IMG/VR virus record: IMGVR_UViG_3300037423_002564
Source: a virus
Length of the DNA: 64,000 nt
Strand: one strand, 5' to 3'
The notes below the pieces were generated by a model. It had not been told where the DNA came from. It saw nothing but the letters and a program-made list of their open reading frames with translations, and searched no databases. A program made the translations under genes and the position numbers. Shown one piece after another: positions 450-21,145 of this stretch. Each line of letters begins with the position of its first letter. Positions within the stretch are counted from its first letter, which is position 1.

Positions 450-821
450 GTGAGCCGCATGCGCGTAACCTGGCGCCACATCCTGCGCCTGGCCGAATAC
501 CAGACCATCCGGGGGGAGTTCAAGCCCAGGCCGGACCGCCAGTGCTGCGCCTGCGGCCACAAGTTCCCCTTGGAGGCCGAGGACACGGATGATCACTACT
601 TCGTCGCCTTCGACACGGACGGCGGGCGGCAGTTGGGCGGCGTGTGGTGGTGCCGGCGCTGCTGGCAGACCCCCGGCAAGGTGCCCATCATCGTGCGCGA
701 GGCCCTCGCCACGATCAACGTGGAGCAAGGGGAACTGTTCACGGTCCGCCACTTCGGCGTCCTTCTGGGCGTCTGGAACAACAACTGCGCGCCCATGGAG
801 CAGGCCGTTGAATCCCCTTGA
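450..821 (+). CDS. Small Cys-rich (two CxxC) protein with DGGR variant of DSGR motif; paralog of 1044..1358
   Basis: CCAC...FDTDGGRQLGGVWWCRRC aligns with WADSGRRLGGIMCCQTC. Confidence 0.75.
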   Translation: MSRMRVTWRHILRLAEYQTIRGEFKPRPDRQCCACGHKFPLEAEDTDDHYFVAFDTDGGRQLGGVWWCRRCWQTPGKVPIIVREALATINVEQGELFTVRHFGVLLGVWNNNCAPMEQAVESP

Positions 822-1149
822 TTGCCTGACCTGCGGCTACCGCATCTACGACCACGGCGACGTTCACCGGGACGTCTACACCTACACCTTCTACGCCGAC
901 TCCGGCCGCCAGCTCCGAGAGGGAAGCCGATGCCACACCCACTGGATTCCACCCACCTTCCTGCCGGGCCTGCTCGCCAAGCTCACGCTCAACACCTGGA
1001 ACGGCGAGATCCACCGGATCATCACGGGCTGGGCGCCAGAGCTGTGGAAGCAGGCGCCCGACTCACCTGGCGGGTTCTCCCGACCGCGGAAGAAACGTCG
1101 GAGTGGCACTGCACGTTCTGCTGGAAGGGTCTCAACGGCTACCCGCTAG
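808..1149 (+). CDS. Small CxxC protein with ADSGR motif
   Basis: TTG at 808 with GGAG 7 nt upstream; CLTC; YTFYADSGRQL. Confidence 0.7.
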   Translation: MNPLDCLTCGYRIYDHGDVHRDVYTYTFYADSGRQLREGSRCHTHWIPPTFLPGLLAKLTLNTWNGEIHRIITGWAPELWKQAPDSPGGFSRPRKKRRSGTARSAGRVSTATR

Positions 1150-1358
1150 TAGGCATCGCGGTCTACCAGTGGTGGGCCGACTCTGGACGGCGGCTGGGCG
1201 GCATCATGTGCTGCCAGACCTGCCAGCGCAACGGCGAGATGCCGGACTTCATCCACGTCAACCACGACCATCCCGGTCTCAAGCAGTTCTACGGCACCCA
1301 GGACGAGATCGAGCCCGTGCTCGGCATCGTCGCGTGGGGCCACCCCAGCCTCGCATAG
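1044..1358 (+). CDS. Small Cys-rich protein with ADSGR motif (start uncertain)
   Basis: CTFC...YQWWADSGRRLGGIMCCQTC. Confidence 0.7.
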   Translation: MEAGARLTWRVLPTAEETSEWHCTFCWKGLNGYPLVGIAVYQWWADSGRRLGGIMCCQTCQRNGEMPDFIHVNHDHPGLKQFYGTQDEIEPVLGIVAWGHPSLA

Positions 1359-3088
1359 AAAGGGACCACCCTATGACCACCGAATCCTACGACCCCGCGG
1401 CGTACTTCGCCGGCGCGCCCGCCAGCAAGATGGTCGACTACCACGGCCGCGGCATGGACCTCTCCTGGCCGCCCGGCCTCGACCCGAAGCGGGTGCAGCC
1501 GGGTCTCTACCGCCGGCACGGCCGCATCAACCCGGGCCACACCTTCCGCGTCTACGGCCTGGTCTACAACATGACCACGCCGCACGGCATGGGCGGGGAC
1601 GCCTGGGGCATGGGCGCCAACCAGAGCGCGCCCAAGATCCTGGTCGAGGCCCTAAAACCGCGGCCGGACGACGAGCCGCAGTGGCAGATGTACGAGATCC
1701 CCCACTTCACCCAGGAGTTCCTCAAGGCCGACGCCAAGAGCGTCTCCGACCCCGGCATCCACTTCTTCGAGCGCATCGGAGACTAGCCCCATGAACCTCG
1801 CGGAGTTCAACGAGCGCTGGCTGCGGGACCCGGACTTCCCCCAGGCCGTTCAGCATATGAGCATGCCAGACCTGGCGCGTCTGGTGGATGAAGCATCGGC
1901 GGCGTTCAAGGGGCCCGACCCGTTGCGCGGTATGATGCCGCGGGAGTTGCTGTTCTACACATACATGCGGCGGCTGGAAGCGTGGCTGCTGGCCTTCGAG
2001 CCGCCCAAGGCCAACGGAAAGAAGAGGAAGGACGCCTGATGGGCAAGCTATCACCGGAAGATCGCGATCGCATCGCCGAGCTGGAGGCCAAGGCCAAGGG
2101 CCAGGACGAGGTGGCGGAAGCCTACCGGCGCAAGGGCGACGACTACAACGCGGCCGACTCCGAGAAGGACGCGCGGAACCTGCGCGCGCACGCGGACTTC
2201 ATCCGCAACGGCGGCCAGCCGCCGGCCGAGGACGACTTCGGCGAGTACAGCGACCTGCTGCGTGGCGGCAAGACGCCATGAAGACCACCATCTGCTTCGG
2301 CTGCGCGCGCGTGGGCGAGCCCGCCACCCGCACCAAGATCGTGGGCCTGGCCTCGCCGCAGGAGACGCAGGAGCGCTACTGCCCCGCCTGCGGCCGGGAC
2401 AACGACCTGGTGGACCTCGACCCGGAGAAGGACCCGCTCTCCTACGCCCAGGACGTGGTGAGGGACTTCGCCACCGCCGTCGGCATCGGCGACCACTGGA
2501 CCGGCCCCAACTTCCCCTCCGCCCAGGTCAAACACGACGTCGAGCAGGCCATCCTGCGGCTGTACGGCCTGGCCCCTACCGAAGGAGATTCCCCGCATGG
2601 ATAAGGTGAACCGGGCGTTCTACGTGGGTAACAGCTACTGGAACGCCTCGCTGCAACAGTTCTGCGGCACCAACACCGAGTTCTCCATCACCTACGCCGG
2701 CCGCGACGTGCGTGCGGGCATCGGCGAGGTGGTCGTCATCGCCCCGGCCAAGGACAACCCGGCGGCCCCCGCGATCTTCGTCTTGGACAGCGGGACGGAC
2801 GAGACCGTCAGCTTCACGCGCATCCGATGAGGATCCACAACCCGAAGACCGGCCAGTGGGTGGAGACCCGCTGCACCGGATGCCCGTGCCACTGGCACAG
2901 CGCCATCGTGATGGGCGACGGCCTGGACGACGGTTGCTGCCGTGAGTGCGGCTGCCCCCGCAGCGAAGCCGGCTGGGCCTACTACGTCAAGGAGCACCCC
3001 GACCGCGTCCGCGGCCACGAGCCGGAGCTAGGTGGCGACACGCCCCGGCCCGGCGACGCCCCGGCGCTTGAATAGAAAGCGAGACCCC

Positions 3089-3337
3089 ATGAGCGACAGC
3101 GAGACCATCGTAGCGCTCGCGCGAGCCAAGCCTTGTCCGTTCTGCAACTCGGTCCTCTTGCGGATCGAGTACGAGTCCATGTCCCTGCGTGTCTGCTGCC
3201 AGACCTGCTATGCCAAGGGTCCCACCGCCAAGAGCGGCGACCCGCATCGGCTGCATCACGACGGCCGCGAGTACAAGCCTGCCGTCGACGCCTGGAACCA
3301 GCGGCGCCGCAAGTACAAGAACAGCAAGCTGGCCTGA
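3089..3337 (+). CDS. Lar-like restriction alleviation zinc-ribbon protein
   Basis: KPCPFC...CQTCYAKGP...AVDAWNQR matches the Lar family pattern. Confidence 0.7.
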   Translation: MSDSETIVALARAKPCPFCNSVLLRIEYESMSLRVCCQTCYAKGPTAKSGDPHRLHHDGREYKPAVDAWNQRRRKYKNSKLA

Positions 3338-3369
3338 TAACACCAGTTCTCTGGAAAGGAGGTTAAGCC

Positions 3370-4539
3370 TTGAGCATGGAGATACCGTCCACCCATTTCA
3401 ATGGGCGGAGCCTGCACGAGCATGCCGAAAAGCACTGGATGCGAACCACGCCAGAGGTGGTCTTGGAATACATCAAGACCCAATATCCCGTGATGCCCAA
3501 CAAGGACATCTCAAAGGAGATTGAAAAAAGGTTTGGTCAAGTCATTCCAGAGCACGAAATTATGCGCGCTGGCAACAAGTTTGGGTTCACGAAGAAGAAC
3601 AGGGGGCGCAAGCCTTCCGCCACCAAGCTGGAGTGGCCCGCGGAGGTCGACAACCTGCTGCGCAACTGGGCCGCGCAGGGGATCCCCCTGCGCGAGCAGC
3701 CGGCGCTCATGGATGCGCTCTTCCCGGGTCGCTACAACTACTACAACATCAACCAGCGGCGTAGCCTCTTGGGTCTCACCAGACGGTCCCCATGGGAGGG
3801 GCGCCCCACCGAGATCCTTGAGGACCGCTATGGCGTGTGGAGCACCCCGGCCATCGTGCGCGCCATTGAGCGCGAAACGGGCCAGAAGTTCACGCCGAAG
3901 GCCGCCCACGAGCGCGCCCTCAACCTGGGTCTAACCGCCAGCGACGCGCGCGGATGGTTCAACCTGAACGCCGCGTCGGTCGAGGTCCAGACCGACGTGC
4001 TCACCTTGGAGAGGTGCTGCAAGAAGCTCGGGGTTCCACTTCGCGGGCGCGGCACGTATCGATTCATCGACGAGCGCGGGATGGCGACGTTGCGCGGCGT
4101 CTTCCCCGACCTAGGGGAACCCGTGTTGACGGTGGACACGGCGGCGAAGGCACTGAGATGCACCGGGAAGGCGGTTCGCGCGCTAATCCTTGGTGGGCAC
4201 CTTTCGGCCAGACGCTGGGGTCTCCACAACCAATGGCTGATCCCAGAGCGAGAGATTGCGCGCTACAAGAGCAAGCCAGGCTGGTTTCGTGACGATGTCC
4301 GCTGGACCATTTTCGGGCATCTACTTGACCATCATCTGTTCGCGGCGCGATCGCTAATGCCTGTGATCGACCGCCGGGATGGCGTAAGCCTGGTTCCGTC
4401 TCCGACGTGGGAGAAGACCCGCTACCGCAAGGGCGATCCAATAGGTCGAGTTATTGGGTTTTCAGCAGGCGTGCTTCATCTTGAGTCGCTGTACGGCCCG
4501 GTCGTGGTTTCCCTGGACGATACACAGCCAGAAAGTTAG
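3370..4539 (+). CDS. Multi-HTH DNA-binding protein with excisionase/MerR-like HTH; paralog of 56338..57162
   Basis: LTVDTAAKALRCTGKAVRALILGGHLSARRWG...WLIPEREIARY; lower GC at both ends. Confidence 0.7.
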   Translation: MSMEIPSTHFNGRSLHEHAEKHWMRTTPEVVLEYIKTQYPVMPNKDISKEIEKRFGQVIPEHEIMRAGNKFGFTKKNRGRKPSATKLEWPAEVDNLLRNWAAQGIPLREQPALMDALFPGRYNYYNINQRRSLLGLTRRSPWEGRPTEILEDRYGVWSTPAIVRAIERETGQKFTPKAAHERALNLGLTASDARGWFNLNAASVEVQTDVLTLERCCKKLGVPLRGRGTYRFIDERGMATLRGVFPDLGEPVLTVDTAAKALRCTGKAVRALILGGHLSARRWGLHNQWLIPEREIARYKSKPGWFRDDVRWTIFGHLLDHHLFAARSLMPVIDRRDGVSLVPSPTWEKTRYRKGDPIGRVIGFSAGVLHLESLYGPVVVSLDDTQPES

Positions 4540-4546
4540 GCATCTC

Positions 4547-4717
4547 ATGTCAGAATGGTACGTGCTTATGACGGACAGCGGGAGGCCAGTTAGAGATATT
4601 CTGGCATTCTCTGTAATAAATGCGCTTCGCCAGGTTCCAGGCTACATGGTGGCAGAAAGAATGTTTCCGCTTAGGAGTAATATACCAATTGGGGATTATG
4701 AAGATGACGACGAATAG
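4547..4717 (+). CDS. 56-aa low-GC protein with TDSGR motif
   Basis: MSEWYVLMTDSGRPVRD; acidic tail. Confidence 0.6.
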   Translation: MSEWYVLMTDSGRPVRDILAFSVINALRQVPGYMVAERMFPLRSNIPIGDYEDDDE

Positions 4718-5090
4718 ATGTCAAAGAATCCCAACCGGCGAGAAGTGGGAGTTGGAGCGCACCAACCAGTGCAAAAACTGCCCGTGGAAGGTGAACTCCA
4801 ACCCGTTCGAGATTCCAGGCTACGACCCCGTGATGCACGCCGGCCTGGCCGACACGATCGCAGACCCGGACAACGTCGACCTGATGGCCCTCACGAAGCC
4901 CTTGCGCGCCATGAGTTGCCACGACGAGGAGGAAGCCTACTGCGTGGGCTGGCTCTACAACCAGCTCAACCAGGGCAACAACGTGGCCCTGCGCGTGCGC
5001 ATGTCGCACTGCACCAACGCCAGCAAGCTCCGGGTCTTCGGCGAGCAGCATGAGACCTTCGAGGACACCATCCCCACGCGGAAGGAGTGA
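4704..5090 (+). CDS. DUF6283-like Cys-rich protein
   Basis: CKNCPWK...MSCH...CVGWL..Q...GNNVALR. Confidence 0.65.
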   Translation: MTTNRCQRIPTGEKWELERTNQCKNCPWKVNSNPFEIPGYDPVMHAGLADTIADPDNVDLMALTKPLRAMSCHDEEEAYCVGWLYNQLNQGNNVALRVRMSHCTNASKLRVFGEQHETFEDTIPTRKE

Positions 5091-5867
5091 ACGCGCCATG
5101 CGAGCGTACAAGACCAACATCAAGCAGTTCGAGGTCGTCGGCTTCCACGACCTCCCCAAGGTGGGCCAGGCCGTCCCCGTCCTGGTCGAGCGCTCGGACT
5201 ACAAGGGCCACCAGGGCCAGGAGCAGTTCGAGCAGTACGGCCACGTTTTCCGCGTCGTCGCCGTGGATGCCGATGCCATGACGGTCGAGCTGGAGCAGAT
5301 GGAGACCAACCCGCTGATGAAGATGCAGCGCCCGCTGGTCCACGGCGAGCAGCGCAGCGCTTGGGGCAAGACCGAGTTCAACGTGCTGGAGCAGCGCCAG
5401 AAGGCGACCAGCACGGAGGAGCACTCTTGAGGCCCGAGGACGACGAGCCCACGGAGGCAGAGATCGAGGAGATCCTGCGCGAGGGGCGCGAGAACCCGCT
5501 GCCCCTCGACGATGCCAAGCGCCTGCTGCGCAAGGTGGGCGAGCATCTGGGCATCCCGCCGGAGGAGGCCGACCGCATCGCCGAAGAGCGCGAGCGTCTG
5601 GACCGCGGACATGACCAGTGATCAAGGGCTTATTTTATATATCGCCCGTCGCTCCGCCGACAAGAGCGGAGCCCCAACATTAAACGCCAAGGAACTTAAG
5701 TGGATTCTCGGCATCATTCTCGACCGACCAATTACTGACGAATGGCTGAAAGAGACAATGTCTGGAATGCTTAATGAGTTAAGACAGTAATTCAGAGAAC
5801 CATTCTTACCAGGAATTTCCCGCGAGCGGAGCCAGAAACCCGCATCGTTACGTGGAGGTAAACCACC

Positions 5868-6242
5868 TTGGAAAACATCACCATCAAGACCGTGGTCTTC
5901 CAACGCCCCGAGCGGGACGGCGGCACCACGGCGATCGCCCACTTCCACATGGTCGACGACACCCGCCCGCCCCTCGCGCGCCTCAAGGAGGCGCTGACGA
6001 AGTGGGTGGCGTTCACCAGCGCCGGGCGGGACGCCTGGAAGTCCAGCAGCGAGGACTTCAACATCGGCGACCTCCGCGATTGGTACGGCGACTCGATGCT
6101 GCACTACCTCAACGAGGAGGGCATCACGAGCATCGTGTTCGAGGCCGTGCGCGACAACAACGAAGTGGTCGCCTACGACGAGCGTCTGGTGAACGACGAC
6201 GAGATCGACTTCAACGAGCCCGTCGGCATGGAGCAGGGGTAG
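5868..6242 (+). CDS. Hypothetical phage protein
   Basis: GGAGG SD, TTG start, typical codon bias; SSEDFNIGDL motif. Confidence 0.65.
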   Translation: MENITIKTVVFQRPERDGGTTAIAHFHMVDDTRPPLARLKEALTKWVAFTSAGRDAWKSSSEDFNIGDLRDWYGDSMLHYLNEEGITSIVFEAVRDNNEVVAYDERLVNDDEIDFNEPVGMEQG

Positions 6243-6482
6243 ATGGGGAAGACCGCCAAGGATCAGATGGAGGCCAACAAGGCGTTCGTCCGCAAGCACT
6301 TCCCCCTGGCCCGCTCCGTGGTCCAACACAACGGCGACTACGCTACCTACGAGATCCTCAACATGGGGACCACGGGCAGCAGCGCCAACAGCACCACCGA
6401 CGAAGCGACGGCCTGGTACTACGCGGCGCAGGCCGTGCAGCGGAAGCTCGACCGCGAGGCCAAGCTGAAAGAGGGCAGGTAG
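6243..6482 (+). CDS. Small protein, FVxxx[FY]PxA...ExxAWxxAA paralog family
   Basis: KAFVRKHFPLA...DEATAWYYAA. Confidence 0.65.
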   Translation: MGKTAKDQMEANKAFVRKHFPLARSVVQHNGDYATYEILNMGTTGSSANSTTDEATAWYYAAQAVQRKLDREAKLKEGR

Positions 6483-6869
6483 ATGGCTTCAACCCTCACT
6501 GTCACGCCGGCGATGATAGATGCCCAGAGGGAGGACATCGCATGCCTCGAAAGGCAGCTCGCTCGGGCCAAACAAGAACTCCGCGACATGCAGGAGGCAT
6601 GCCGCAAAGGCGAACCCCTCCCCATCTAGGAACGCAGGAGGTACACAGGGTGACATTCAAGCGCTACGGAGGCTGCCCCCACTGCAACATGGGCCTTGAA
6701 GGTCGCAGCAAGTGGTGCAAGCACTGCCGGAAGTCGGTGAAGCCTACCCTGGCAACGCCAGCGTGGGACAGCCCGAACGACCATGCCGACGCACCCTACG
6801 ATGTGCGAGAGCAGTTCTCGTGGTGGTTCTGGCTGACGGCCAGGTTGCGTTTCCGCAGGTAGGAGCATC

Positions 6870-7088
6870 ATGTCGAAGAAAACCAAGAAGAGCGAGGGCG
6901 ACAAGGAGTTCGTGCTGGCGCGCTTCCCGGGCGCCAAGGCCGCGCGCCGGAAAGTGTACGCCGGCACCAAGACCTACGGCTGGGTCATCGAGGGGGTCGG
7001 CGGCCTGCCGATCGCCCCACAGCAGCGCGGCGAGGATGCCGCCTGGGCCGAAGCGGCCAAGGCCATCCGCAACTACAGGGAGCAGTAG
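6870..7088 (+). CDS. Small protein, FVxxx[FY]PxA...ExxAWxxAA paralog family
   Basis: KEFVLARFPGA...GEDAAWAEAA; AGGAG SD. Confidence 0.7.
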   Translation: MSKKTKKSEGDKEFVLARFPGAKAARRKVYAGTKTYGWVIEGVGGLPIAPQQRGEDAAWAEAAKAIRNYREQ

Positions 7089-9638: not shown

Positions 9639-10288
9639 TCTCGGCGGCGGCGCCAAGATCGCCATGTTATCTGGAGCCGAAAATTCGGGCCGATCCCGAA
9701 GAACCGCTCCAAACCCGGAAAGCTAGTAAATTAGCCATATAAGGCTGGTTATCCCGACAATTCGATTTATGTCCAGCAGGAGGATTTACAGATGGGCGGA
9801 CCATCCGCGGACACCCGCAGCGACATCTACCGCGTGGACCGGCAGAAGGTTATCTTGCTCTTCCTCGCCGGCCAGGCGCTGACAGAGCGGCCACGCACCC
9901 GGTACGAGTTGAGCCACGACGTCATCCGTGACGGCGACGAGCTGCGGCTCGTGATGTATGGCGAGCACGTCGTCGCCACCCGCAACTTGAGCACGGGCGC
10001 CATCACCATCGACCACTGCGGCTGGCGCACCAAGGAGAGCCAGAAGGTGATCGAGCCCATCCTCGTCCACTTCTTCGGCTACGTGCTCACGCTCTTGGTC
10101 AAGGGCCGCGGCCGTGGGAGAAACCGCGACCGCGAGCCGGTCTGGCGCATCGTCGGACCGACGGTCGATGTGTCGATCGAGTTCGACAACGCCGTGACGT
10201 TCACGCCGGTGGCGCCTTCGGTCTGGGACGTCTCGTCCGAGTTCTCCAGCGAGTTCCGGCGCTTCAACCTGGCCGCGCGGGCGTCGGC

Positions 10289-10675
10289 ATGAGCTGGGAG
10301 ATCGTCCAGGAGCGCAACGGCACCGTCGACCTGAAGCGCATCCTCTACGACCGGCTCTCGGGCGAGGACACGGTCCACGCCACGGCCTGGATGGTTGGCA
10401 AGCTGGAGCTGCGCGGCCTGGCCGCCTACGCCTGCATGTTCGAGCACAAGTACTTCGACTCCGAGCGTCACAGCCAGGAGGGCGTGGGCGTGGTCATCAT
10501 GATCGAGCCCCAGCCCCAAGAGGGCCGCTTCCACATCAAGGTGATGGACGAGCGGGAGGGGCCCCTGGCCTACGACTGCCCGAAGGAGGTGCTGGACCTG
10601 CTGACCCCCACTGACGACCCGAAGGCGCTGGCCTGGCGTGCCCGCTGCAAGGAGCGTCTGGGATGCGCTACCTAA
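10289..10675 (+). CDS. DUF6927-like protein
   Basis: KVMDEREGPLAYDCPKEVLDLLTPTD...AWRARC. Confidence 0.7.
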   Translation: MSWEIVQERNGTVDLKRILYDRLSGEDTVHATAWMVGKLELRGLAAYACMFEHKYFDSERHSQEGVGVVIMIEPQPQEGRFHIKVMDEREGPLAYDCPKEVLDLLTPTDDPKALAWRARCKERLGCAT

Positions 10676-11343
10676 TCAAGGACCTGGCGGACCTGCTCGC
10701 GCTGGGCTTCATCGTGGAGCGCGACCCCGACGACACCTACGGCGCGGCCTATCCGCACGCCCAGCACTGGTGGGACATCGAGCGCAATCCGCGGGACGAA
10801 GGCGTGTTCGTCGACGTCCGCCTGGCCGACTCGCCCATCGAGTTCGGCGTCGCCATCGAGCCCTGCCGCAGCATGTGGGCCGACCGCATGCGCGACTCCG
10901 GCAAGGGGCTCCAGCACGTCTCCTGCTACCGCGTGGAGGAGCGCCGGCAGTTCGTGGGCGCGTTGCCCGAGACTTGGAGCGGCTTCAAGATCGAAGAGGC
11001 CAAGAACGGCGGCGTGGACATGTTCTGGACCCGGCCTACCGTCAACACGGACGGCCTGCTGACCATGCTCAAGTTCCGCCGGTGCTGGTCGTTCACGGAG
11101 ATGAAGGTCTACCTGCCCAACGAGACCGGCGATGCCTGGCTCGTGCGCACCCACCACGCCGACGGCACGCTGGACTACCGCTTCTGGGACCTGCGGGCGA
11201 TCGCCAACCGCATCGTCGACTTCATGGAGGACCCCTTGGCGTGGGTGCAGATCGACCACCCGGATTCCCCCGATAAGTTCGCAAAGGAGGTGGCGCATGC
11301 CCGAGATATTGGCGCCTTCAGCAAGATTCCAAGCCGACCTTGA
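10663..11343 (+). CDS. Hypothetical protein with RDSGK motif variant
   Basis: Coupled ORF, typical codon bias; MRDSGKGL. Confidence 0.7.
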   Translation: MRYLIKDLADLLALGFIVERDPDDTYGAAYPHAQHWWDIERNPRDEGVFVDVRLADSPIEFGVAIEPCRSMWADRMRDSGKGLQHVSCYRVEERRQFVGALPETWSGFKIEEAKNGGVDMFWTRPTVNTDGLLTMLKFRRCWSFTEMKVYLPNETGDAWLVRTHHADGTLDYRFWDLRAIANRIVDFMEDPLAWVQIDHPDSPDKFAKEVAHARDIGAFSKIPSRP

Positions 11344-12046
11344 GCGCCTGACGGCCCAAGGCTGGAAGATCGACTACCACGAGGGCTACCGCAAGTTCTA
11401 CGACGCGGTGGACTTCATCGACCTGGCCGAGATCGAAGTGGGCCGGGCTTACATGAACGGGCCGCTGGACGACGAGGTCGAGCTGGTGCGCATGGAGCTG
11501 GGCGATTACGGCATCATGCTGTGCAAGAAGAAGGCGTTCAGCCTGGACTGGCAGCCGCTCGTGGACTCCGGCACGCGCGAGTTGGGCGAGTTGCAGGAGT
11601 GGGAGAACAAGAAGCCACCCGAGGCCGCCTGCGTCGCGTTCCGCAAGGTGCTGCGCGACATCGCGGAGTTCCACCGCCGCGTCGGCAAGGCCACGCCCGA
11701 CAAGCCCGATGGCCTGCTGGAGTCCCAGGTAGACGGCTACACCGGCTACTTCTCGTGGACCTGGGACATGGTGGACCAGCTCTACGTCTACGTCCACCTG
11801 CCGAAGGCCGGCTGGGAGCTGGAATACGAGGACCGCTGGTTCCACACCCTCACCGACCTCCAGGCCACGTTCTGGGAGATGATCGACAAGTACATGGGCC
11901 ACGACGCGGAGTCCCGCGGCGAGGACGACGACGACCACGAGGGCGACCTGATCGACCGGAGCTGGGCGGCGAAGGTCCGGCCCACGGACCCGATCATCCG
12001 CCCTGCCACCCGGAAAGGGGTTCGAGAGCATGTCTACTTCGAGTAG
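11297..12046 (+). CDS. Acidic hypothetical protein with VDSGTR motif variant
   Basis: AGGAGG SD before ATG 11297; PLVDSGTRELG. Confidence 0.7.
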   Translation: MPEILAPSARFQADLERLTAQGWKIDYHEGYRKFYDAVDFIDLAEIEVGRAYMNGPLDDEVELVRMELGDYGIMLCKKKAFSLDWQPLVDSGTRELGELQEWENKKPPEAACVAFRKVLRDIAEFHRRVGKATPDKPDGLLESQVDGYTGYFSWTWDMVDQLYVYVHLPKAGWELEYEDRWFHTLTDLQATFWEMIDKYMGHDAESRGEDDDDHEGDLIDRSWAAKVRPTDPIIRPATRKGVREHVYFE

Positions 12047-12425
12047 TCCCTACAACACGCTGGGCGTGAAGCGCAACACGGAGCACCACCTGCGGTTGCT
12101 CGTGGGCCTGGCCGCGGACACCGGTCGCGTCTACTTCACCCGGCCACACAAGTGGCGCATCCGCATGTTCGTGGTCAACGAGAACCGCGAGCTGGTGGAG
12201 TTCGAGCCCACGGGCAACCCGATGAAGCTCACGGGCGGCTCCCAGGAGGAGCTGGACGTCCACCGCCGGCAGGAGGCGAAGCTGATGGGGTTCTGCCTCA
12301 AGAAAAGAGCCCTCTTGGCGGCCACTGTGGAGGCCGCCAATATGCCCGCGGCCACCTTCGGCTCCCTCTGCCGGGTCGCGGGGGTTCCCGTGCCCAAGGT
12401 AACATATCACAGGCTCGACGAGTAA
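12030..12425 (+). CDS. Hypothetical protein with ADTGR motif variant
   Basis: LVGLAADTGRVYF. Confidence 0.7.
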   Translation: MSTSSSPYNTLGVKRNTEHHLRLLVGLAADTGRVYFTRPHKWRIRMFVVNENRELVEFEPTGNPMKLTGGSQEELDVHRRQEAKLMGFCLKKRALLAATVEAANMPAATFGSLCRVAGVPVPKVTYHRLDE

Positions 12426-12793
12426 TGGGAGCGATCGCCTACACCCATGACGGGGACGTCTATTGCACGAGCTGCTGCGAGGCAGAAGAGGACAACCCGG
12501 AGCAGGGCGCCATCTTCCCCTGGAACGAGATCGACCACCGCGGGCTCTTCTGCGGCCAGTGCCGGCGGGCGATCGTGGACCCCCAGAGCCCTCCGTTCGT
12601 TCGCCTATTCGTGGCCGATTCCGGCCGCGCCTTCCGCGAGGAGAAGTGCGGCCAGGGCTGGATCCCCTCCGGCATCCCCGACCATGTTGCCGACGCCATC
12701 AACGATATGGACGATCACCACGTCATCGAGTTCCTGGACGATGACGGCCTCCTCAACCTGGCCGTCGGCACGGAGGTGCGCCGTGCCGGGTGA
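12425..12793 (+). CDS. Zn-ribbon protein with C-terminal ADSGR module
   Basis: IAYTHDGDVYCTSC...CGQC then RLFVADSGRAFRE. Confidence 0.7.
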   Translation: MGAIAYTHDGDVYCTSCCEAEEDNPEQGAIFPWNEIDHRGLFCGQCRRAIVDPQSPPFVRLFVADSGRAFREEKCGQGWIPSGIPDHVADAINDMDDHHVIEFLDDDGLLNLAVGTEVRRAG

Positions 12794-13136
12794 GGAGCGC
12801 ATTCGCGAGCCAGACCCCCACCTCTTGGAGGGCTGGGAGGTCTACGTCGAGACCATCTTCTACAACGACTCGGGCCGCTTCATCGGCTCCAAGCACACCT
12901 GGTGGCCCGAGACGCCGGCGGAAGTGCTCTACGCCTTCATGGACAACCAGTATGTCGCCGACATCGCCCATGAATGCCTACCTTACGGCATCTGCGCCGA
13001 CATCTACGCCAGCAGGATCGAAGGGAGAATCTGCAAATGTCCGCTACCTGTGAGGCGCGCGCCGGGACCGCCCGGTACGTGCGCCTGTGGCGCCAATTAC
13101 GGGTCTTCAACAAGTGCTACACCATCCAGGAACTAG
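12783..13136 (+). CDS. Hypothetical protein with NDSGR motif and Cys-rich C-terminus
   Basis: GGAGG SD, GTG start; TIFYNDSGRFIGS. Confidence 0.7.
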   Translation: MPGEERIREPDPHLLEGWEVYVETIFYNDSGRFIGSKHTWWPETPAEVLYAFMDNQYVADIAHECLPYGICADIYASRIEGRICKCPLPVRRAPGPPGTCACGANYGSSTSATPSRN

Positions 13137-13921
13137 ACGAGCGGGTGCGTGATGCGGTCTTCGAGAGGATGCGCAACGACCCGAACCAGTGGGACTACCA
13201 CGACAGCGAGATGTGCAGCGAGGACGCCAAGCACACCCTGGAGCGGTTCGGTTACGAAAACCAGGAGGTGAGCTGGAGCGCCGGCTTCTGCCAGGGCGAC
13301 TACTTCAACTTCGCCAGCGGCACCGTGCGCGACCAGTTCGTGATCCGCCGGGTGATGGGCAAGCGCGCGCGCCGGCTGGAGCGCTTCTTCGAGAAGCGTG
13401 GTCGTGACCTCTACCGTCTCATCGGCATCAGCGTGAACGCCGGCTACCGCGGCCTGGACCGGAACTCCCGCGAGATCGTCATCTCGCTGGACGAGCAAGA
13501 CCTGGTGGTGGGCGGGACCTTCACCGCCCTGGCCGATTCCGGCCGCAAGCTGGAGGCCCACACGTTCACCACCTACAACCTGGGCAGCGGCCTGGCGCGC
13601 GAGCTTCAACACGAGGTAGAGGGGAACTGGAGCCGTTGGGGCGAGGATGGCGCGGACCCCGTCGTCCGCAAGGTGCGCGGGTTCTGGTACGTCGTGAAGC
13701 CCATCACGATGAACGAGTTCATGGAGAAGTTCGTCTCCGATCTGGAAGCGGCCGTCGAGGCGGACTGCGACCGCATCTGCCGGAACATCCTAAGCGACAT
13801 CCACGACGAGATCATGTACAAGTCCAGCGACGAGTACCTCGCGGAGGAGTGCGAGGGCCGCGACCTCTGGTTCGACAAGGAAGGCGAAGAGGTAGACCTG
13901 CCCCATGGATACCCCCGGTAG
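13037..13921 (+). CDS. Acidic phage/plasmid protein (family often mis-annotated as antitoxin of TA stability system) with internal ADSGR segment
   Basis: YTIQELDE...WSAGFCQGD...YKSSDEYLAEECEGRDLWFDKEG; insert FTALADSGRKLE. Confidence 0.6.
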   Translation: MSATCEARAGTARYVRLWRQLRVFNKCYTIQELDERVRDAVFERMRNDPNQWDYHDSEMCSEDAKHTLERFGYENQEVSWSAGFCQGDYFNFASGTVRDQFVIRRVMGKRARRLERFFEKRGRDLYRLIGISVNAGYRGLDRNSREIVISLDEQDLVVGGTFTALADSGRKLEAHTFTTYNLGSGLARELQHEVEGNWSRWGEDGADPVVRKVRGFWYVVKPITMNEFMEKFVSDLEAAVEADCDRICRNILSDIHDEIMYKSSDEYLAEECEGRDLWFDKEGEEVDLPHGYPR

Positions 13922-14243
13922 CGTCTGCCGGCAGTGCGGCCGGCACTACATCCAGTGGCTCCACGTCCGCTTCTTCGCCGACGTGGGCAACCGCGTACTG
14001 GGCTATGTGGCCGGCCCGGCCATCTGCTTTCCCCCGGCCGTCCAGAAGATGGCCTGGAGCGCCATCAGGAACAACTGGGGCTTCACCAAGGTCCAGTTCC
14101 TGCCGGAAATGGCCGGCCGCCTGGTGCAGGTGAAGATCGGCAGCGCGATGGACCACTGCCTGCTCTGCACCCTCACCGACGATGGCATCTTTGCCAGGAG
14201 CTACCGCAGCATGAACGGACTTGGCGATGACGGCAACGGCTGA
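13905..14243 (+). CDS. CxxC protein with ADVGNR motif variant
   Basis: CRQC...VRFFADVGNRVLG. Confidence 0.65.
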   Translation: MDTPGSVCRQCGRHYIQWLHVRFFADVGNRVLGYVAGPAICFPPAVQKMAWSAIRNNWGFTKVQFLPEMAGRLVQVKIGSAMDHCLLCTLTDDGIFARSYRSMNGLGDDGNG

Positions 14244-14571
14244 CGAATACGAGGCCGCGACCCAGCGGGACCCGCTCTCGCGCATCTGCTTCCACTGCGA
14301 CCGGAAGTTCTCGCCCAGCTTGGATTACATCCGCGCCGCGGACAGCGGGCGTTCGCTCCACCAAGGCGGTGGCCCCGCCATCATCCTCACGCGCCACGAG
14401 CGCATGTTGCTCGGGCGCTTCTCCAAGTACAACACGGACGGCACGTCCAAGCTTCACAACGTCCCGCACAACCAGATGATTGATGGTTGCTGGTACTGGG
14501 GCGACATCCACCTCGAAAGCTGCTGCTCGACCTGGTGTCAGCGGAAGTGGTACGAGGAGAACCACGATTAG
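14227..14571 (+). CDS. CxxC protein with ADSGR motif
   Basis: CFHC...YIRAADSGRSL...CSTWC. Confidence 0.7.
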   Translation: MTATADEYEAATQRDPLSRICFHCDRKFSPSLDYIRAADSGRSLHQGGGPAIILTRHERMLLGRFSKYNTDGTSKLHNVPHNQMIDGCWYWGDIHLESCCSTWCQRKWYEENHD

Positions 14572-14580
14572 GAGATCGAC

Positions 14581-15528
14581 ATGATCAAGCTCTCCAACGG
14601 CCTGATGGCCGACATCTCCACCCTCAAGCTCGACCGCTTGCAGCGGCTACCGCAACTCCCGGGCGGCATGGGCGTCAACACCCAAATGGGGTCCGGCTGC
14701 TTCTTGGAGCCGCCGGGCCACCCCAGCTATTTCATGCGCTCGGTCGGTGGCGACTGCCGCGCCTACGTCATCAGCATCGGCGACGGCGTCTATATCGTCG
14801 ACGGCGAGACCTACAACGGTGGCTGGAAGGACGTTAACTGGGTCAAGTACGGTGCGCCGAAGGATCGCCAGGAGCGGCTCAACTGGCTCTACAGTCCGCT
14901 CCCTGTCGACCACCCGCGGGTGCGCGCCTGGATCGAGCAGCTCTACCGCCACCAGCGCAACTGCTACCGCATCGAGGGCGAGAAGGACTTCGTCGTCTTC
15001 CCGACGCAGTCCCACGACTTCATCAAGATGGGGCTGTTCGTCCCCGAGCCGTCCGGCCGCGAGGCCAAGCTGGAGGGTGGCATCTTCGACCACCTCTCCG
15101 AGGAGACCAAGGAGCGCTACCGCGTCACGCAGGCCGGCCTGATGGCCGAAGCCCAAGAGACCGTCAAGATCAAGCGCGAGGCGTTCAACGCGGAGCGCGC
15201 CAAGGCTTGCACGCCCGATCGCCACCTCGCGGTCTTGAGCGTCCGCAAGTTCTACCCGGAGTACCAGCCGGAGCTGGACCTCATCAACGCCGAGCAGGGC
15301 GCCCGGCCGGCCGACTGGTGGACGGTCCTTGCCACCAAACCCGATCCGTGCCCGATGGCCCACAAGCCGCATATGCGCTTCGTGTGCCAGTACTGCGGCG
15401 ACAAGAGCGACGGCACGCCGGGTCCCAACGGCGAGGTCTACAACAACGCCAAGGACGGCAACAAGGAGGTCTACGCCGGCTACGTCTACCACAACGAAGC
15501 CGCCAAGGTCGAGGCACCTCGGGCATGA
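14581..15528 (+). CDS. Hypothetical protein
   Basis: AGGAG SD, 315-aa ORF with typical codon bias. Confidence 0.7.
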   Translation: MIKLSNGLMADISTLKLDRLQRLPQLPGGMGVNTQMGSGCFLEPPGHPSYFMRSVGGDCRAYVISIGDGVYIVDGETYNGGWKDVNWVKYGAPKDRQERLNWLYSPLPVDHPRVRAWIEQLYRHQRNCYRIEGEKDFVVFPTQSHDFIKMGLFVPEPSGREAKLEGGIFDHLSEETKERYRVTQAGLMAEAQETVKIKREAFNAERAKACTPDRHLAVLSVRKFYPEYQPELDLINAEQGARPADWWTVLATKPDPCPMAHKPHMRFVCQYCGDKSDGTPGPNGEVYNNAKDGNKEVYAGYVYHNEAAKVEAPRA

Positions 15529-16091
15529 TGACCATCCGCGTGAGCGTGGACCACGGCGAGCTGCGGCGCGACGAGTTCTCGTTCTACTTCGAGCCCCTGC
15601 GCAACGAGTTGCGGCTGTCGGGGTACGAACGCCAGACGCGGAAGAGCAAGCGCGCCAAGTTCGTCGCCGTGGCGGCCTATCCCTCCAGGCGCCCCTTGGA
15701 GGTCCTGCGCGAGTATCAGGTGCCGCTCACGGCCGCCGTGATCGCCGAGGCCCACCAGCAACTCGTGGACCGCGTGCGCGCGGCCAAGCTGCCGGAGCCC
15801 AACCCCAACTTCCCAGAAACCCCATGAACACGCCCATCGACGCGAGCCGTCACTTCGTCGATGGGTGCGACCCCTGTATGCGCGCCCAAGAGGATGACAC
15901 GACCTACTTCGACCGCTGCACGTTCTGCAACCGGCTCGTGACCACGTATTGGTGGCTTCACGACGAGCAAGCCCACCCCGCCAACGGCAACGAGTGCGAG
16001 GTGTGCTTCTACAAGGCCGTATGCGATGCTTGTGCGATCGTTATCGACAGTAACGGTGCCATCCTCTGTCCCCCATGCCGTGATGCGCGGC

Positions 16092-16475
16092 ATGGCCGAA
16101 AGGTTGCACCCGGTGGAAGACCATAAAACCTTTGTCATTACCAGCTACCCCAACGCCTTCGCCATCTTGGTCGGCGACACCTGGCAGGTGTGGAGCGGCG
16201 ACGCGGCGGAGCTGCTGATCGCCGCGGCCGAAGGTAGCGAGGACGTAGCCTGGCAGGCCGCCGCCAAGCTCATCAAGGACAACCAGGTGGCGGCCGTGAA
16301 CGCCTCCTACCAGGAGGTACATCGCTGCGCCAAGGCCATCGAGTACGAGGCCCAGCGCATCATGCACGCCGCGGAGATGCGCCGGCCCCAGGACGTGATG
16401 CACCACTTCAACAAGCTCCAGGACTTCTACACGCTGCTCGCCAACGAGCGCGTGATGCTCGTGGCCTACGAATAG
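16092..16475 (+). CDS. Protein of FVxxx[FY]PxA...ExxAWxxAA family with helical C-terminal extension
   Basis: KTFVITSYPNA...SEDVAWQAAA. Confidence 0.65.
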   Translation: MAERLHPVEDHKTFVITSYPNAFAILVGDTWQVWSGDAAELLIAAAEGSEDVAWQAAAKLIKDNQVAAVNASYQEVHRCAKAIEYEAQRIMHAAEMRRPQDVMHHFNKLQDFYTLLANERVMLVAYE

Positions 16476-16491
16476 GCCGGGAAGGAATCGC

Positions 16492-17211
16492 ATGAACAGC
16501 AAGGACTTGGCCGAACGTATCGTCGAGGCGATGCGCGAGAACACCTTCGCGCTCTACCAGAAGGACACCGACAAGGACCGGGAGCTGAAGGCGCTGATCG
16601 CCGGCATCCTGGGCGAGACGCCGGCCGGCCTCTTGTCGGTGGATGTGCGCGACGAGGCCATCGTCTCGCACATCGACAAGGAGATACTCAAGCGGCTCGC
16701 GCCGGGCGAGTTGCGCCGCGTCCAGGCCGACATGATCGACACCCTCATGCGGCTGGAAGAGGCGCTCCAGAAGGAGTGCGGGCCCGATGGAGGCCGGGTG
16801 ATGGGCATCGGCGCGAACCTCAACGTCAACGCCTGGCTCACGATGCCGGAGCTGATGGGCACCGGCGGCGACATCCGAACGGCGAAGATCGTCGCCTGCC
16901 TCCACGATATGAACGAGGGCCACACCATCTTCGAGGACCACGGCCCAGAAGACCCGCACGAGGACGACACCTACCGGTGCGACGAGTGCAAGAAGTCCGG
17001 CCCGTGGTCGGAGACGGCGGCCGGCCACTGCCCGCACTGCGACATGCCGGCAGACTTCGTGCCCCACGACCCCTTCGCGCACAAGGACAACCCGCCCCCG
17101 CTCTACGATGACCAGCCGGAGCCGGACGGCCCCCAGGCCAACCCCTGGGTCGCGGAGGCGGATCTGGAGCGCGACCGGCAGATCTACCCGGGCATCCACC
17201 CCGATGCTTGA
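16492..17211 (+). CDS. Hypothetical protein with C-terminal Zn ribbon
   Basis: CDEC...CPHC; typical codon bias. Confidence 0.65.
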   Translation: MNSKDLAERIVEAMRENTFALYQKDTDKDRELKALIAGILGETPAGLLSVDVRDEAIVSHIDKEILKRLAPGELRRVQADMIDTLMRLEEALQKECGPDGGRVMGIGANLNVNAWLTMPELMGTGGDIRTAKIVACLHDMNEGHTIFEDHGPEDPHEDDTYRCDECKKSGPWSETAAGHCPHCDMPADFVPHDPFAHKDNPPPLYDDQPEPDGPQANPWVAEADLERDRQIYPGIHPDA

Positions 17212-18009
17212 ACAACCCACGCCGCGCGAAGCGGACGAGGTCTCCGACGAGGACCTAGAAGCCGCGAGCGAGATGCTCGACGGCCTCGTCAACGGCACCC
17301 ACTACCCGCCGGCGGGCTCGACGATCGGGCCCTTCACCGTGCGTTACATCGGAGGTTAACCCAGCCATGACCCACTTGGACCGCCAGGTCATCATCCACC
17401 TCTTCCAGGGCGGCGCCGTCGTCGCCCGGGACAAGGACGACAAGAGCAAGGAGACCAAGAAGAAGATCGACGGCTCTCTGCCGGTCTTCTCCGTCGACAC
17501 GATGGAGGAGGCTAACCAGCTCATCACCTTGCTCTGCAAGCGCGGCTACGACAACGAGTCAATGCTGCTGCCGTTCTCCGGCGAGTACGAGCACATGATC
17601 AAGGTCTCCGAGATGATGGAGGAGGTGTACACGCTCAAGAAGCGCGGCTACACCGGCGAGGAGCTGTTCGCCCCCTTCGTCCGCTACAAGAAGGAGACGG
17701 GCTGCGAGGTCAAGCTGCCATGAGCGGCAACACCCGCCTCTTCCGGGTCGAAACCTCGGAGCTGATCTACGCCACCGTCGTCCGCTACGTGGAGCTGCCG
17801 GCGGACGACGTGGAGCCCGAGTACAACGCCGCCATCAAGGCCCGGGAGGAGCAGAAGAACGACATGGCGGAGGTCCACCCGGACGGCCACTACGAGCACC
17901 TCGACACCCGCGAGGTGAAGGAGGTGACGGGCGCGGAGGCCGAGGCCATCCGCAAGCAGGCAGCCAAGGACAAGGCGCGCATCGAGCGCTTTGACGTCAC
18001 TCGCTAGAC

Positions 18010-18366
18010 ATGAAAACGAAGAAGAAGAAAACCTACCCCAAGGTTCACATCACGGCGGCCGATCTGGCCGCCCTACCGGAGTACTCCGCCTCCTTGCCTA
18101 CCGGCACCTATTTGGGCAAGCGCTGGAAGCGCGATTGCGGTCCCGACCGGGATTCCGGCCGCAAGACCTGGTTCATCGGGGAGTTCTACCCCATCGACAT
18201 CCCCGGAGAGGTGGGCATCCGCTGGAGCGAGGTGTGGCTGGTGCCCGCCTACGGACCGACGGAGATCCACCCCAAGGAGGCCAAGACCTGCCTCTGCCAC
18301 ACCGAGCCCTACAAGTTCGGCGTCTGCCACGTATGCGCGGCCTGGCGCTGGAAGCACGAGCGATAG
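18010..18366 (+). CDS. Hypothetical protein with RDSGR motif
   Basis: LPEYSASLPTGTYLGKRWKR...DRDSGRKTWFIG. Confidence 0.65.
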   Translation: MKTKKKKTYPKVHITAADLAALPEYSASLPTGTYLGKRWKRDCGPDRDSGRKTWFIGEFYPIDIPGEVGIRWSEVWLVPAYGPTEIHPKEAKTCLCHTEPYKFGVCHVCAAWRWKHER

Positions 18367-19206
18367 CGAGGACCCATGCCCTTCAAGCCCATCGACCCGG
18401 TGGACTACACCAACAACCCGGCAGACCCGCGGCGGGAGAAGCTGGGGAACGCCGGCGCGGCGTTCGTCAACCGGCTGCTGGAGCGCGGCTGGAAGCCGAT
18501 GGTCAACCCGCAGACCAAGCACAAGGATCGCATCGACATCCGCGACGAGCAGAACGTCACGGTGGCGATGCTCCACGACTACGACGACATCAACAGCCTG
18601 GCCGAGGCGCTCCAGCCGCCACCCAAGGAGTTCTTCCGCATCATGAGCGGCTTCCAGAAGGCGCTCGCGGACGGCTGGACGCTTGAGACCAAGGACGACA
18701 AGATGTTCGCCTGCCGACCGGCCTGGGCCAACTACAAGCTCCAGAACTACACCGACCTGGAGCTGTGGCTCCACGACGCGGGCTACGCCCATGGGTGCTT
18801 CTAAGATGGGCATGTTTAGCTGGACTTGCCCCAAGTGCAAGCTGCCCGTACTCTCACCCATGGTGACGGGCGGCGACCCGCGCGCGGTGAAGCTCACGCG
18901 CGTGGTCTTCCTGCTGCCCGGCGGCAGCCTCATCCGTGGCGACTACGACGGCTATGGTGGCACCAACCAGCACCCGATGCTGGTAGCCGACCTGCCCGTG
19001 GACAGCCAGGTCAAGGTGCAACACCAGGGCTGCTACACCGGCGAGAGCTACGCCGACGCGCCCGACAGCCCCGACGAGCCCCGGCAGGGCTTCATGTACA
19101 GCGAGGAGGAGCTGGAGCGTATCTTCAGCGGCACCCCCATCCCCGACGACGAGCCGAGCCCCATGGACCGGGCGCTGGCCGACGTCCTTGCAGAAGGAGA
19201 GACCCG

Positions 19207-19812
19207 TTGAGTCAGAGTTTCGAGCTGATCAAGGAGCTGCTCGCGAGCGATCGCGGCCCCGAGGCGATGGAAGAGATCGTCGAGAAGGCGCGCGCGCTGG
19301 TCGCCGCGGCCGAGATCGAGGAGGAGGACGAACGGCTGGACCAGCTCGTCGCCAACTTCGAGGGCAACATCGCCGACCTGGAGAGCGTCACCAACCGCCT
19401 CGACAACCTCACGGGCGACGGCCTGGCCGGCCCCTGGGTGCCCGGCTGGCTGGAGAGCCTGGGTGTGGAACTCGACGAGGTCGAGGACATGAAGTCCACC
19501 GCCTACGACCTGCACGAGAAGATGGAGACCTGGCGCGACCAGATGCAGGAGCTGCGCGCGGGCGTCAAGGGACGCCGCACGGTGCTCGCGGCCTACCCCG
19601 GCGCGAAGATCGTGCAGCCCAACCTGATGCTGCCGCACTTCGTGGCGGAGATCGACGGCGAGGAGGTCGAGGATGCCGTCGGCACCACGGAATGGGAGGT
19701 CTGGGAGGTGCTGGCCGACCTGCACAAGGAGGGCAAGCTTTTCCCGGTCGCGAGCGGCCAGGTGGACCACTCGCGGCTGTCCACCAACCAGACCAACTAC
19801 TGCGAGGACTAG
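19207..19812 (+). CDS. Acidic coiled-coil protein with C-terminal FVxxx[FY]PxA-like domain
   Basis: GAAGGAG SD, TTG start; RTVLAAYPGA...TEWEVWEVLA. Confidence 0.65.
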   Translation: MSQSFELIKELLASDRGPEAMEEIVEKARALVAAAEIEEEDERLDQLVANFEGNIADLESVTNRLDNLTGDGLAGPWVPGWLESLGVELDEVEDMKSTAYDLHEKMETWRDQMQELRAGVKGRRTVLAAYPGAKIVQPNLMLPHFVAEIDGEEVEDAVGTTEWEVWEVLADLHKEGKLFPVASGQVDHSRLSTNQTNYCED

Positions 19813-20246
19813 GCCATGGACCCCAAGGCCAACCTCGACGAGCAACTCGCCCTCGCCAAGCGCGTCCAAGAGATCGCGGGCAGCCAGCCAGCCTACATCG
19901 AGCTAAACGAGGAACTGTCCGCCGAAGTGCGAGAATCGGCGTCTCGCCTCTCCGAACTGGTTCTCGCGCTGCACGAGTGGCGCGAGAAGGGCGGATTCGA
20001 CCCCTACCAGACCGCGCCGACGATGGACCTTGAAGCCCGTAACCCGTGGGGTATCTACCTGACCAACATCGACACGGAGCTGGGCTACCAGCGCCTGACC
20101 GACGAGCAGGTCCGCAATCTGCGGACGGAGCACCCGCGGGCGGAGATCTTCCACATGAAGACCAAGGACCTGTACGTCTTGGAGCCGGACGACTGGAAGG
20201 ACATGGGGTTCAAGGAGAACCCGCTGCCCAAGCGGGCCTTACCCTA

Positions 20247-20274
20247 GAAGCGAAAGCGAAAGGAAAGCGAAAGC
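20247..20274 (+). repeat. Intergenic GAAAGC-like tandem micro-repeat (five imperfect units)
   Basis: gaagc gaaagc gaaag gaaagc gaaagc directly before ATG 20277. Confidence 0.7.
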
Positions 20275-20653
20275 CCATGAGCTACAAGCGCATGCTCGCG
20301 GTGATGGTCGTGGAGGCCGGCAAGGAGCCGGAGCTGCGCGAGGTGGAGATCGAGCCCCAGTTGGACTCCTGGGACGCCCTCAAGAACGTCTACGCCATCA
20401 CCGGGGACGAGGGCAACACGGAGTACTTCTCCCTCCCGCCCGCCTACCCGGACGGCTACAAGCTGTTGTCGGCGTGGGACTGGCGGGACCTCCGCTTCAA
20501 CCGCCTCATCAATGCCGAGCCCTACTTCGGCACCGTGGTCATCGTGGCCCAGTGCCGGCTGGGCTCGCAGTGGGGCGCGCGCAGCATCATCGACGAGGAG
20601 TTCGAGTTCCTATGCCAGTGGCTGACCATGAGCAACCCGCGGTGCTTGACGGC

Positions 20654-21145
20654 GTGAACGAGCCCACGGTCTTCCGCGGCCCGCGGATGGAGGACTTCCC
20701 CGACACGCCCGAAGGGTCGGACGCCTACGGCAACGCGTACTGGAAGGCGCGCTGGGACTTCATTCACGCCGGCCACTCCGAGCGCTTCGAGGAGCACTGC
20801 CTGGCCGAGGAGGACGGCACCACCTACGAGTTCCAGGTGGAGCAGCGCACCCAGAGCGGCACCACCGCTTCCGACCTGCCGGTCTACGACGACGTGGACC
20901 AGGCGATCGCCTACCTCGAAGCGGCGCCGTTCGCCGGCATGGTCCAGCGCTACGTCAAGGGCGCCAATTGGCTCACGGCCGGCATCGCCTACGAGAAGCA
21001 CCGCGGCATCAAGGACCTGTGGCTCGCGCGCAACGAGATGCCCGACATGCCCCACTGGCACGGCGAGCGCCAGTGCGACAGCGGGCGCTACTTCTTCGTG
21101 CGCTGCGAGCTGTGTAAAGACCGAGCCGACACCCGGACCCCGTAG
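20654..21145 (+). CDS. Hypothetical protein with CDSGR motif near C-terminus
   Basis: RQCDSGRYFFVRCELC. Confidence 0.65.
   Translation: MNEPTVFRGPRMEDFPDTPEGSDAYGNAYWKARWDFIHAGHSERFEEHCLAEEDGTTYEFQVEQRTQSGTTASDLPVYDDVDQAIAYLEAAPFAGMVQRYVKGANWLTAGIAYEKHRGIKDLWLARNEMPDMPHWHGERQCDSGRYFFVRCELCKDRADTRTP

Follow-up and report, generated by a model that had tools for sequence, protein, structure and literature searches.

Analysis of the window, a 64,000-nucleotide stretch of viral DNA (IMG/VR virus record IMGVR_UViG_3300037423_002564; 65% G+C), identified a tetrapeptide, Asp-Ser-Gly-Arg (DSGR), that recurs in the products of its early region (1-21.2 kb; about 50 small + strand genes), both in a family of small zinc-finger-like proteins and in proteins that show no detectable homology to it. 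The best-supported reading, which we hold tentatively, is that DSGR is an exposed loop epitope that may be recognized by one common partner, with the zinc-finger-like family as its main presenter. According to this proposal, the motif would lie at an exposed loop or hairpin tip and would be presented by many early proteins of the phage lineage to a single reader, either a protein or a nucleic acid, with docking likelier than covalent modification. The main presenter would be a family of small zinc-finger-like proteins, expanded and specific to this lineage, that carry DSGR at the tip of a long two-stranded beta-hairpin, and the same tetrapeptide would also have become established in loops of differently folded proteins. 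The tip would be bound by something, and all carriers would share that partner. What is new here is the spread of the motif outside the zinc-finger-like family, its tracking in two distant lineages and in outgroups, and the selection seen at codon level.

Genes were called with a codon model trained on the long genes of the window, and five low-scoring frames were added by hand; this gave an early proteome of 6,479 amino acids and 12,986 amino acids for the remaining genes of the window. A six-frame check found nine exact copies of DSGR, one per gene, in frame and on the + strand (Asp codons at 898, 1179, 4574, 12617, 12867, 13535, 14341, 18151, and 21077), each where an earlier reading of the same DNA (the original prediction) had placed it. 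The sole further copy, at 32070 on the minus strand, lies in a frame that has a stop and is antisense to a gene. The five variants listed in that prediction (DGGR at 618, DSGK at 10894, DSGT at 11564, DTGR at 12117, and DVGN at 13980) are also present at the stated places; the list had overlooked a DSER at 10457 (gene 10289-10675). Nine copies compare with 0.11 expected from the composition of the early proteome (about 80-fold), and in 2,000 within-protein shuffles the count averaged 0.09 and never exceeded 3, in agreement with the earlier estimate of well under one chance copy. Among the 4-mers of the whole window DSGR ranks first; the runner-up, ADSG, occurs in five early proteins, and the shuffles never gave more than five. 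The later genes hold no DSGR in their 12,986 amino acids, as had been claimed for genes past 21.2 kb. The strong enrichment is limited to the full tetrapeptide, the two-residue sub-patterns (D..R and.S.R) being without it. Two distant relatives, L001 (orthologues at about 34-48% identity) and L007 (30-53% identity, E 3e-5 to 2e-49), carry three copies each in about 1,250 amino acids vs. 0.03-0.04 expected, a count reached in none of 5,000 shuffles. The four exact copies outside the zinc-finger-like family (4574, 13535, 18151, and 21077), vs. about 0.1 expected, are already far beyond chance. A chance origin of the DSGR count is thus ruled out by the composition estimate and the shuffles. DGGR is also over-represented (3 vs. 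0.19 expected).

Judged from the codons, it is the peptide and not the DNA that is under purifying selection, which upholds what had been predicted. The nine copies use four Ser codons and four Arg codons, and across nine orthologue pairs used for close comparison (89-99% DNA identity) the motif codons carry seven synonymous and no replacement changes. Between 14227-14571 and its counterpart in L002, several nearby flanking residues differ and DSGR is unchanged. The matching DNA 12-mer and its 9-mer core are neither enriched over shuffles nor above expectation in other frames. Three copies share GATTCCGGCCGC, with the rare GAT codon, and Asp is encoded by GAT in three of the nine motif copies vs. 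11% genome-wide. This shared codon was considered as a sign of common descent and rejected, since among the motif Asp codons of the window and L001-L003, GAT and GAC flip between close relatives.

The raw DSGR count mixes family descent with the presence of the motif in unrelated scaffolds. The carriers had been described as mostly unrelated; seven of the 14 listed are paralogues, while at least six further carriers (4547, 10289, 11297, 13079, 18010, and 20654) have no detectable homology to them. The seven, all on the + strand, align as a single family of about 105-130 amino acids. Three of them lie at the start of the window: 459-821 (120 amino acids, both CxxC pairs, turn DGGR at 618-629; placed by alignment and by an AlphaFold2 (AF2) model), 808-1149 (113 amino acids, DSGR at 898-909, second ligand pair degenerate as C..H.H; blastp to 459-821 with E=5e-5, alignments A1/A3), and 1044-1358 (both CxxC pairs, DSGR at 1179-1190; blastp and alignment), whose start is uncertain and whose length of about 104 amino acids is either 104 or 50 in the gene calls of relatives. 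The other four are 12425-12793 (122 amino acids, DSGR at 12617-12628; alignments A1/A3), 12783-13136 (no first CxxC, start uncertain, DSGR at 12867-12878; aligned to 808-1149), 13905-14243 (112 amino acids, turn DVGN at 13980-13991), and 14227-14571 (114 amino acids, DSGR at 14341-14352), the last two assigned by alignment. The pairwise blastp links among members are weak (E of 5e-5, 4e-3, and 8e-3). The high profile score of 12783-13136 arises by construction, as this protein was included in the profile, and its leave-one-out flank score is at background.

The family plan begins with an N-terminal W-R-x-I-L helix and a CxxC knuckle, followed after 14-20 residues by a hydrophobic strand; then come [A/T]-D-S-G-R, x-L-G with a second strand, a second CxxC that is complete in some members, and a helix after a conserved Pro. 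DSGR (or DGGR, or DVGN) is the hairpin turn. In the 15-row alignment A3, the Asp (D54) is the sole invariant column; at least 90% of rows retain the Arg (R57), the first CxxC, and the Pro. The first CxxC (C29 and C32) is found in 14 of the 15 rows, being missing only from 12783-13136. The second ligand pair is complete in 459-821, in 1044-1358, and in five external homologues, and it is degenerate or missing in the other five of the seven (808, 12425, 12783, 13905, and 14227). Some family members have G, A, or V instead of the Ser of the motif, and the third position is occupied in various homologues by Q, S, E, D, or W, with D and R kept more strictly; that Gly is replaced more freely than Asp or Arg runs contrary to a purely Gly-dependent turn. 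The orthologue of 12425-12793 in L007 (39% identity, E=1e-15) keeps DSGR amid changed flanks, and that of 13905-14243 has DAGK in the same column.

An AF2 model of 459-821, built from alignment A3 (predicted local distance difference test (pLDDT) 75, predicted template modeling score 0.68; pLDDT about 80 at the motif), shows strands at 46-53 and 58-65 with the motif as the turn at 54-57 and a helix at 66-70 that starts from the second CxxC, a predicted arrangement of zinc knuckle, hairpin, and knuckle or helix. The fingers of the family probably bind zinc. The hairpin context that the original prediction had suggested is thus borne out in the one family member modeled, where the motif is at the hairpin tip; the other model attempted, of 13079-13921 from two sequences, reached a pLDDT of 35 and is unusable. 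A Foldseek search of the 459-821 model against the PDB returned nothing at E<=0.001, and neither the ESM Atlas, searched by shape and by features, nor BFVD gave a clear match for the family model. A wide structural search (VIA) gave no significant match (best Z 4.1); ZZ domains took about 10 of its 50 rows (Z 2.7-4.0). For the ZZ-type zinc finger (PF00569) there is no Pfam match in the family, which has at most four Cys near the hairpin where the cross-brace of that finger has two zinc sites. A profile search run exhaustively over 1.84 billion representative proteins retrieved only the family's own and closely related proteins, the small contig L001 with four tandem family paralogues, and long WD40 proteins. 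The family is extremely rare, with only three metagenomic lineages found in this set; it is new, yet of a known structural kind. The fourth paralogue of L001 has the turn DGGM, but carries an exact DSGR 25 residues upstream.

Three known types of protein resemble the family. Like small zinc-ribbon or treble-clef proteins of phages, of which the Lar type (PF14354) is an example, its members are small, are encoded in the early region, and run from CxxC through a beta-hairpin to CxxC and then a helix. The window itself encodes an 82-amino-acid Lar-type restriction-alleviation zinc ribbon at 3089-3337 (+; PF14354, E=3e-8), and a CCQTC knuckle is common to this protein and 1044-1358. However, no carrier matches PF14354 (E<=1), and the carriers differ in their longer hairpin, in the fixed DSGR tip, and in the second ligand pair, degenerate in five of seven. 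The C-terminal zinc ribbon of TFIIS and archaeal TFS has a conserved hairpin tip with an Asp that reaches into RNA polymerase; the family shares the order CxxC, hairpin, CxxC and a conservation peak at the tip that includes an Asp. It nevertheless has no match to Pfam TFIIS_C, and its tip is D-S-G-R where that of TFIIS is an acidic D-E pair. Also unlike a single polymerase factor such as TFIIS, there are dozens of paralogues, and the motif is found in non-finger proteins. Finally, the WD40 hairpin between strands b and c (FSPDG[KR]xL) has the same succession of hydrophobic strand, Asp-x-Gly-Arg/Lys turn, and x-Leu strand, whereas each carrier has one hairpin, lacks a propeller, and does not match WD40 in Pfam (PF00400). 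The WD40 cross-matches of the family profile are summed scores of 5-17 repeats, and WD40 is a structural look-alike, not a relative.

Family scans covered 60 window proteins against Pfam and 20 against PHROGs, and nearly all of these proteins were orphans. Pfam had no match for 10 carriers, nor for 10 further early proteins, four of which are carriers or variant carriers, and PHROGs matched solely unnamed families, for 10289, 13079, and 18010. The best hit of a sequence profile search of the PDB (E 0.06) was to a small CPxCG zinc finger. No close match to the DNA of the window turned up in phage or plasmid collections, and no relatives were found in IMG/VR or in one scan of a Joint Genome Institute metagenome.

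Outside the family, 10289, 11297, and 13079 match different PHROGs or none and keep a DS[G/x]R column in distant relatives (30-43% identity). No link between the non-family carriers and the family was found with A2/A3 hidden Markov models, with an anchored flank profile, or with Smith-Waterman alignment and shuffles. In hhalign comparisons of these three proteins with the family, the probability was 0.4-2.7% and the motif alone was aligned. The first, 10289-10675 (+; 128 amino acids, phrog_21047), has DSER at 10457-10468 where its orthologues in both L001 and L007 have DSGR, and in alignment A6 residues D57, S58, and R60 are the sole invariant residues within a variable loop. Two outgroup homologues, from Klebsiella phage DP (E=7e-11) and from a faecal phage, can be aligned along their C-terminal half; at the loop their sequence is quite different and the motif is absent. 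As 10289 belongs to a widespread phage family with motif-less outgroups, its motif was gained within this lineage, on a foreign scaffold that already existed. The second, 11297-12046 (+; about 212-249 amino acids), has DSGT at 11564-11575, which is a true motif position because its L007 orthologue (E=1e-16) carries DSGR there (hhalign probability against the family 2.7%, motif only). The third, 13079-13921 (+; 280 amino acids, DSGR at 13535-13546), matches phrog_5162 with its N-terminal part and lies inside the tandem array of the family; hhalign gives a probability of 0.9% against the family, and the L007 orthologue (32% identity, E=1e-41) has DSDR.

Three more exact copies lie outside the family. 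The 56-amino-acid product of 4547-4717 (+) has DSGR near its N-terminus (4574-4585). In the part that it shares with L003 there are 10 synonymous and no replacement changes, which shows this small, low-GC gene to be real. A sigma-70-like promoter sequence (TTGACA-18-CATAAT, 11/12) lies at its 3' end, on the - strand (4695-4724). The Cys-rich protein of 18010-18366 (+; 118 amino acids) has DSGR at 18151-18162, and 20654-21145 (+; 163 amino acids) has it at 21077-21088, close to the C-terminus and between a Cys and a CxxC; the end of the latter protein resembles a short zinc knuckle plus hairpin, with family homology undetectable. A C-G-P-D lead-in to G-R is common to 18010-18366 (DCGPDRDSGR, 18133-18162) and to 16492-17211 (ECGPDGGR, 16786-16800), and may be a small segment shared by these otherwise unrelated proteins. 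Two candidate variants complete the set, 10663-11343 (+; 226 amino acids, DSGK at 10894-10905), in which DSGK is kept only in L008 (95% identical), and 12066-12425 (+; 119 amino acids, DTGR at 12117-12128). An impression by eye that 10663-11343 and 11297-12046 are paralogues was discarded, as blastp gave no significant similarity. Across carriers the motif lies anywhere between residues 10 and 153, and several of the non-family copies are followed by Pro. The best-conserved local gene is 9792-10292 (+; 48-53% identity in L001 and L007); it matches no family, and in each of the three lineages DSGR carriers are its direct neighbors.

Five observations speak for selection on the peptide itself, most simply as an exposed epitope with a common reader: it keeps its place in unrelated scaffolds, was gained in comparison with outgroups, has moved in one paralogue, recurs in distant relatives, and is missing from later genes. 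Present in different families at a fixed position and absent from outgroups, the motif has the look of a grafted recognition motif. To this extent the original prediction of a common signal attached to varied cargo is supported: there are different families, positions that stay fixed amid diverging flanks, and, for one carrier family, outgroups without the motif. No partner, modification, or capsid-loading role was found. Several further points weigh against a shared recognition epitope. There is no candidate reader among the window proteins scanned, and half of the carriers are paralogues, so that descent accounts for much of the raw count. The sequence D-S-G-R is well suited to a tight type-I/G1-bulge hairpin turn, and since the family profile cross-matches the WD40 FSPDG[RK]xL hairpin, a structural role alone could keep the motif within the family. 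Tandem clustering of the carriers (459-1358, and a run of nine consecutive genes between 10289 and 14571) is what duplication followed by extreme divergence predicts. Shared ancestry of a hairpin of only 10-20 residues could be compatible with the hhalign result. Exposure of the motif is modeled in 459-821 only, and for 18010 and 20654 solely near-identical relatives were found.

These points lead to a serious rival, a structural turn combined with cryptic homology, which we consider doubtful as an account of all carriers. Here DSGR would be a structural keystone only, a hairpin-nucleating turn that is the last remnant of one ancestor after tandem duplication, fusion, and extreme divergence, and there would be no common partner. 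Within the finger family, the motif is indeed a classical tight turn and its recurrence is explained by descent. The seven demonstrable paralogues, some of them near the detection limit, their tandem clustering with 13079 inside the array, the plain hairpin turn of the AF2 model, the WD40 look-alike, and the C-DSGR-x5-CxxC of 20654, which is like a shortened finger, all fit this explanation. The original prediction had named as contrary evidence that all carriers should share one ordinary fold in which DSGR is a mere turn, and this is the case for half of them. In the other carriers, however, hhalign, shuffled Smith-Waterman alignment, and flank profiles see nothing past the motif; 10289 is in a widespread phage family whose outgroups lack it; the fourth L001 paralogue bears DSGR away from the turn; Pro after several non-family copies fits a loop better than a tight hairpin; and the later genes of the same phage are without DSGR. 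Even one ancient hairpin module would still have to be useful in each host protein.

A broader form of recognition, which we likewise regard as possible but doubtful, is that DSGR might be a short linear addressing motif of the phage. Dozens of differently folded early proteins would have acquired it convergently, a dedicated zinc-finger scaffold family would display it, and a single reader, either a host machine or a phage protein, would use it to bind, sort, or time the early proteome as a whole. In eukaryotes and their viruses, connecting many proteins to one reader through a shared linear motif is a basic organizing principle. As in the short linear motifs (SLiMs) of the ELM type, DSGR has four residues, occurs in unrelated proteins at a fixed position amid variable flanks, and is gained and lost between orthologues. 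Its occurrence without common descent is indicated by the hhalign probabilities of 0.4-2.7% and the different PHROGs, with bare-hairpin homology still possible, and its plasticity by DSER/DSGR/DSGR in 10289, DSGT/DSGR in 11297, and DSGR/DSDR in 13079. In contrast to SLiMs, which are mostly found in disordered regions and recognized by a known domain, the best-modeled DSGR is a structured hairpin tip. Another short peptide common to otherwise unrelated phage proteins is the T4 capsid targeting sequence, an N-terminal tag removed by the prohead protease. DSGR differs from it in being internal, in its variable position (residues 10 to 153), and in being encoded by early non-structural genes, and it does not qualify as a tag of that type. 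A full-text literature search for the DSGR motif in phages returned nothing relevant, and we know of no shared-linear-motif system for phage early proteins.

Less probable still is that DSGR is an enzyme substrate site, with modification of the Ser or Arg or cleavage after the Arg, perhaps timing the removal of early proteins. The enrichment, the selection, and the fixed columns in orthologues would apply equally to such a site, both Ser and Arg can be modified, and no residues are better kept than D and R. We consider this improbable, however, as scans of 60 window proteins against Pfam and of 20 against PHROGs revealed no protease, kinase, or ADP-ribosyltransferase, the tight hairpin tip of a zinc finger is poorly suited to cleavage by a protease, and the Ser is lost to G, A, or V in some members of the family. 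Weakest of all, and close to refuted, is a signal at the nucleic-acid level, for instance a site for methylation, a nuclease, or regulation, whose coding for DSGR would be incidental: three copies share the DNA word with the rare GAT codon and the window encodes both C5 and N6 DNA methyltransferases, but the codon variety among the nine copies, the unenriched 12-mer and 9-mer core with no out-of-frame excess, and the free variation of codons between close relatives, in which the peptide never varies, all speak against it.

If one partner reads DSGR as an exposed epitope, its identification would give a function to many orphan genes that form a large block, and replacing D, S, or R with Ala would provide a simple mutable handle on host takeover. 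If DSGR is merely a structural turn, the zinc-finger-like proteins would still be a new and very rare family, and the case would be a caution that motif counts need correction for paralogy.

Beyond the early region, the window encodes genes of nucleotide and DNA metabolism (24014-62532). These include an AAA_23/SMC-like ATPase (24014-25345), an IstB/DnaC-like loader (29725-30741), and a thymidine kinase (30831-31424), followed on the - strand by an HU-like protein (35915-36232), ThyX (45447-46991), a Dam-like N6 methyltransferase (46988-47713), a C5 cytosine methyltransferase of 705 amino acids (53565-55682), and a tyrosine recombinase (61693-62532). Two large proteins, 38395-40470 (-; 691 amino acids) and 40585-42117 (+; 510 amino acids), had no Pfam or PHROGs match, and the first had no tblastn match in the phage collection either. 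The 385-amino-acid product of 22353-23510 (+) is assigned to PF26125 (AcrVA2-like) in a precomputed table for a near-identical relative; our own Pfam scan placed it in no family, and in PHROGs it falls in phrog_15934, of unknown function. The adjacent genes 42118-42804 and 42805-43500 (+) encode paralogues that are 61% identical over 89 amino acids (E=5e-30), and the second shows a weak match, below the cut-off, to a cell-wall hydrolase domain (PF07486). Within the early region, genes 2597-2830 of the window are absent from L003, and 3362-4552 compared with L003 3586-4829 points to module replacement between relatives that are 97% identical, the window having a lower-GC, 387-amino-acid HTH_17 gene (3376-4539) where L003 carries other small genes.

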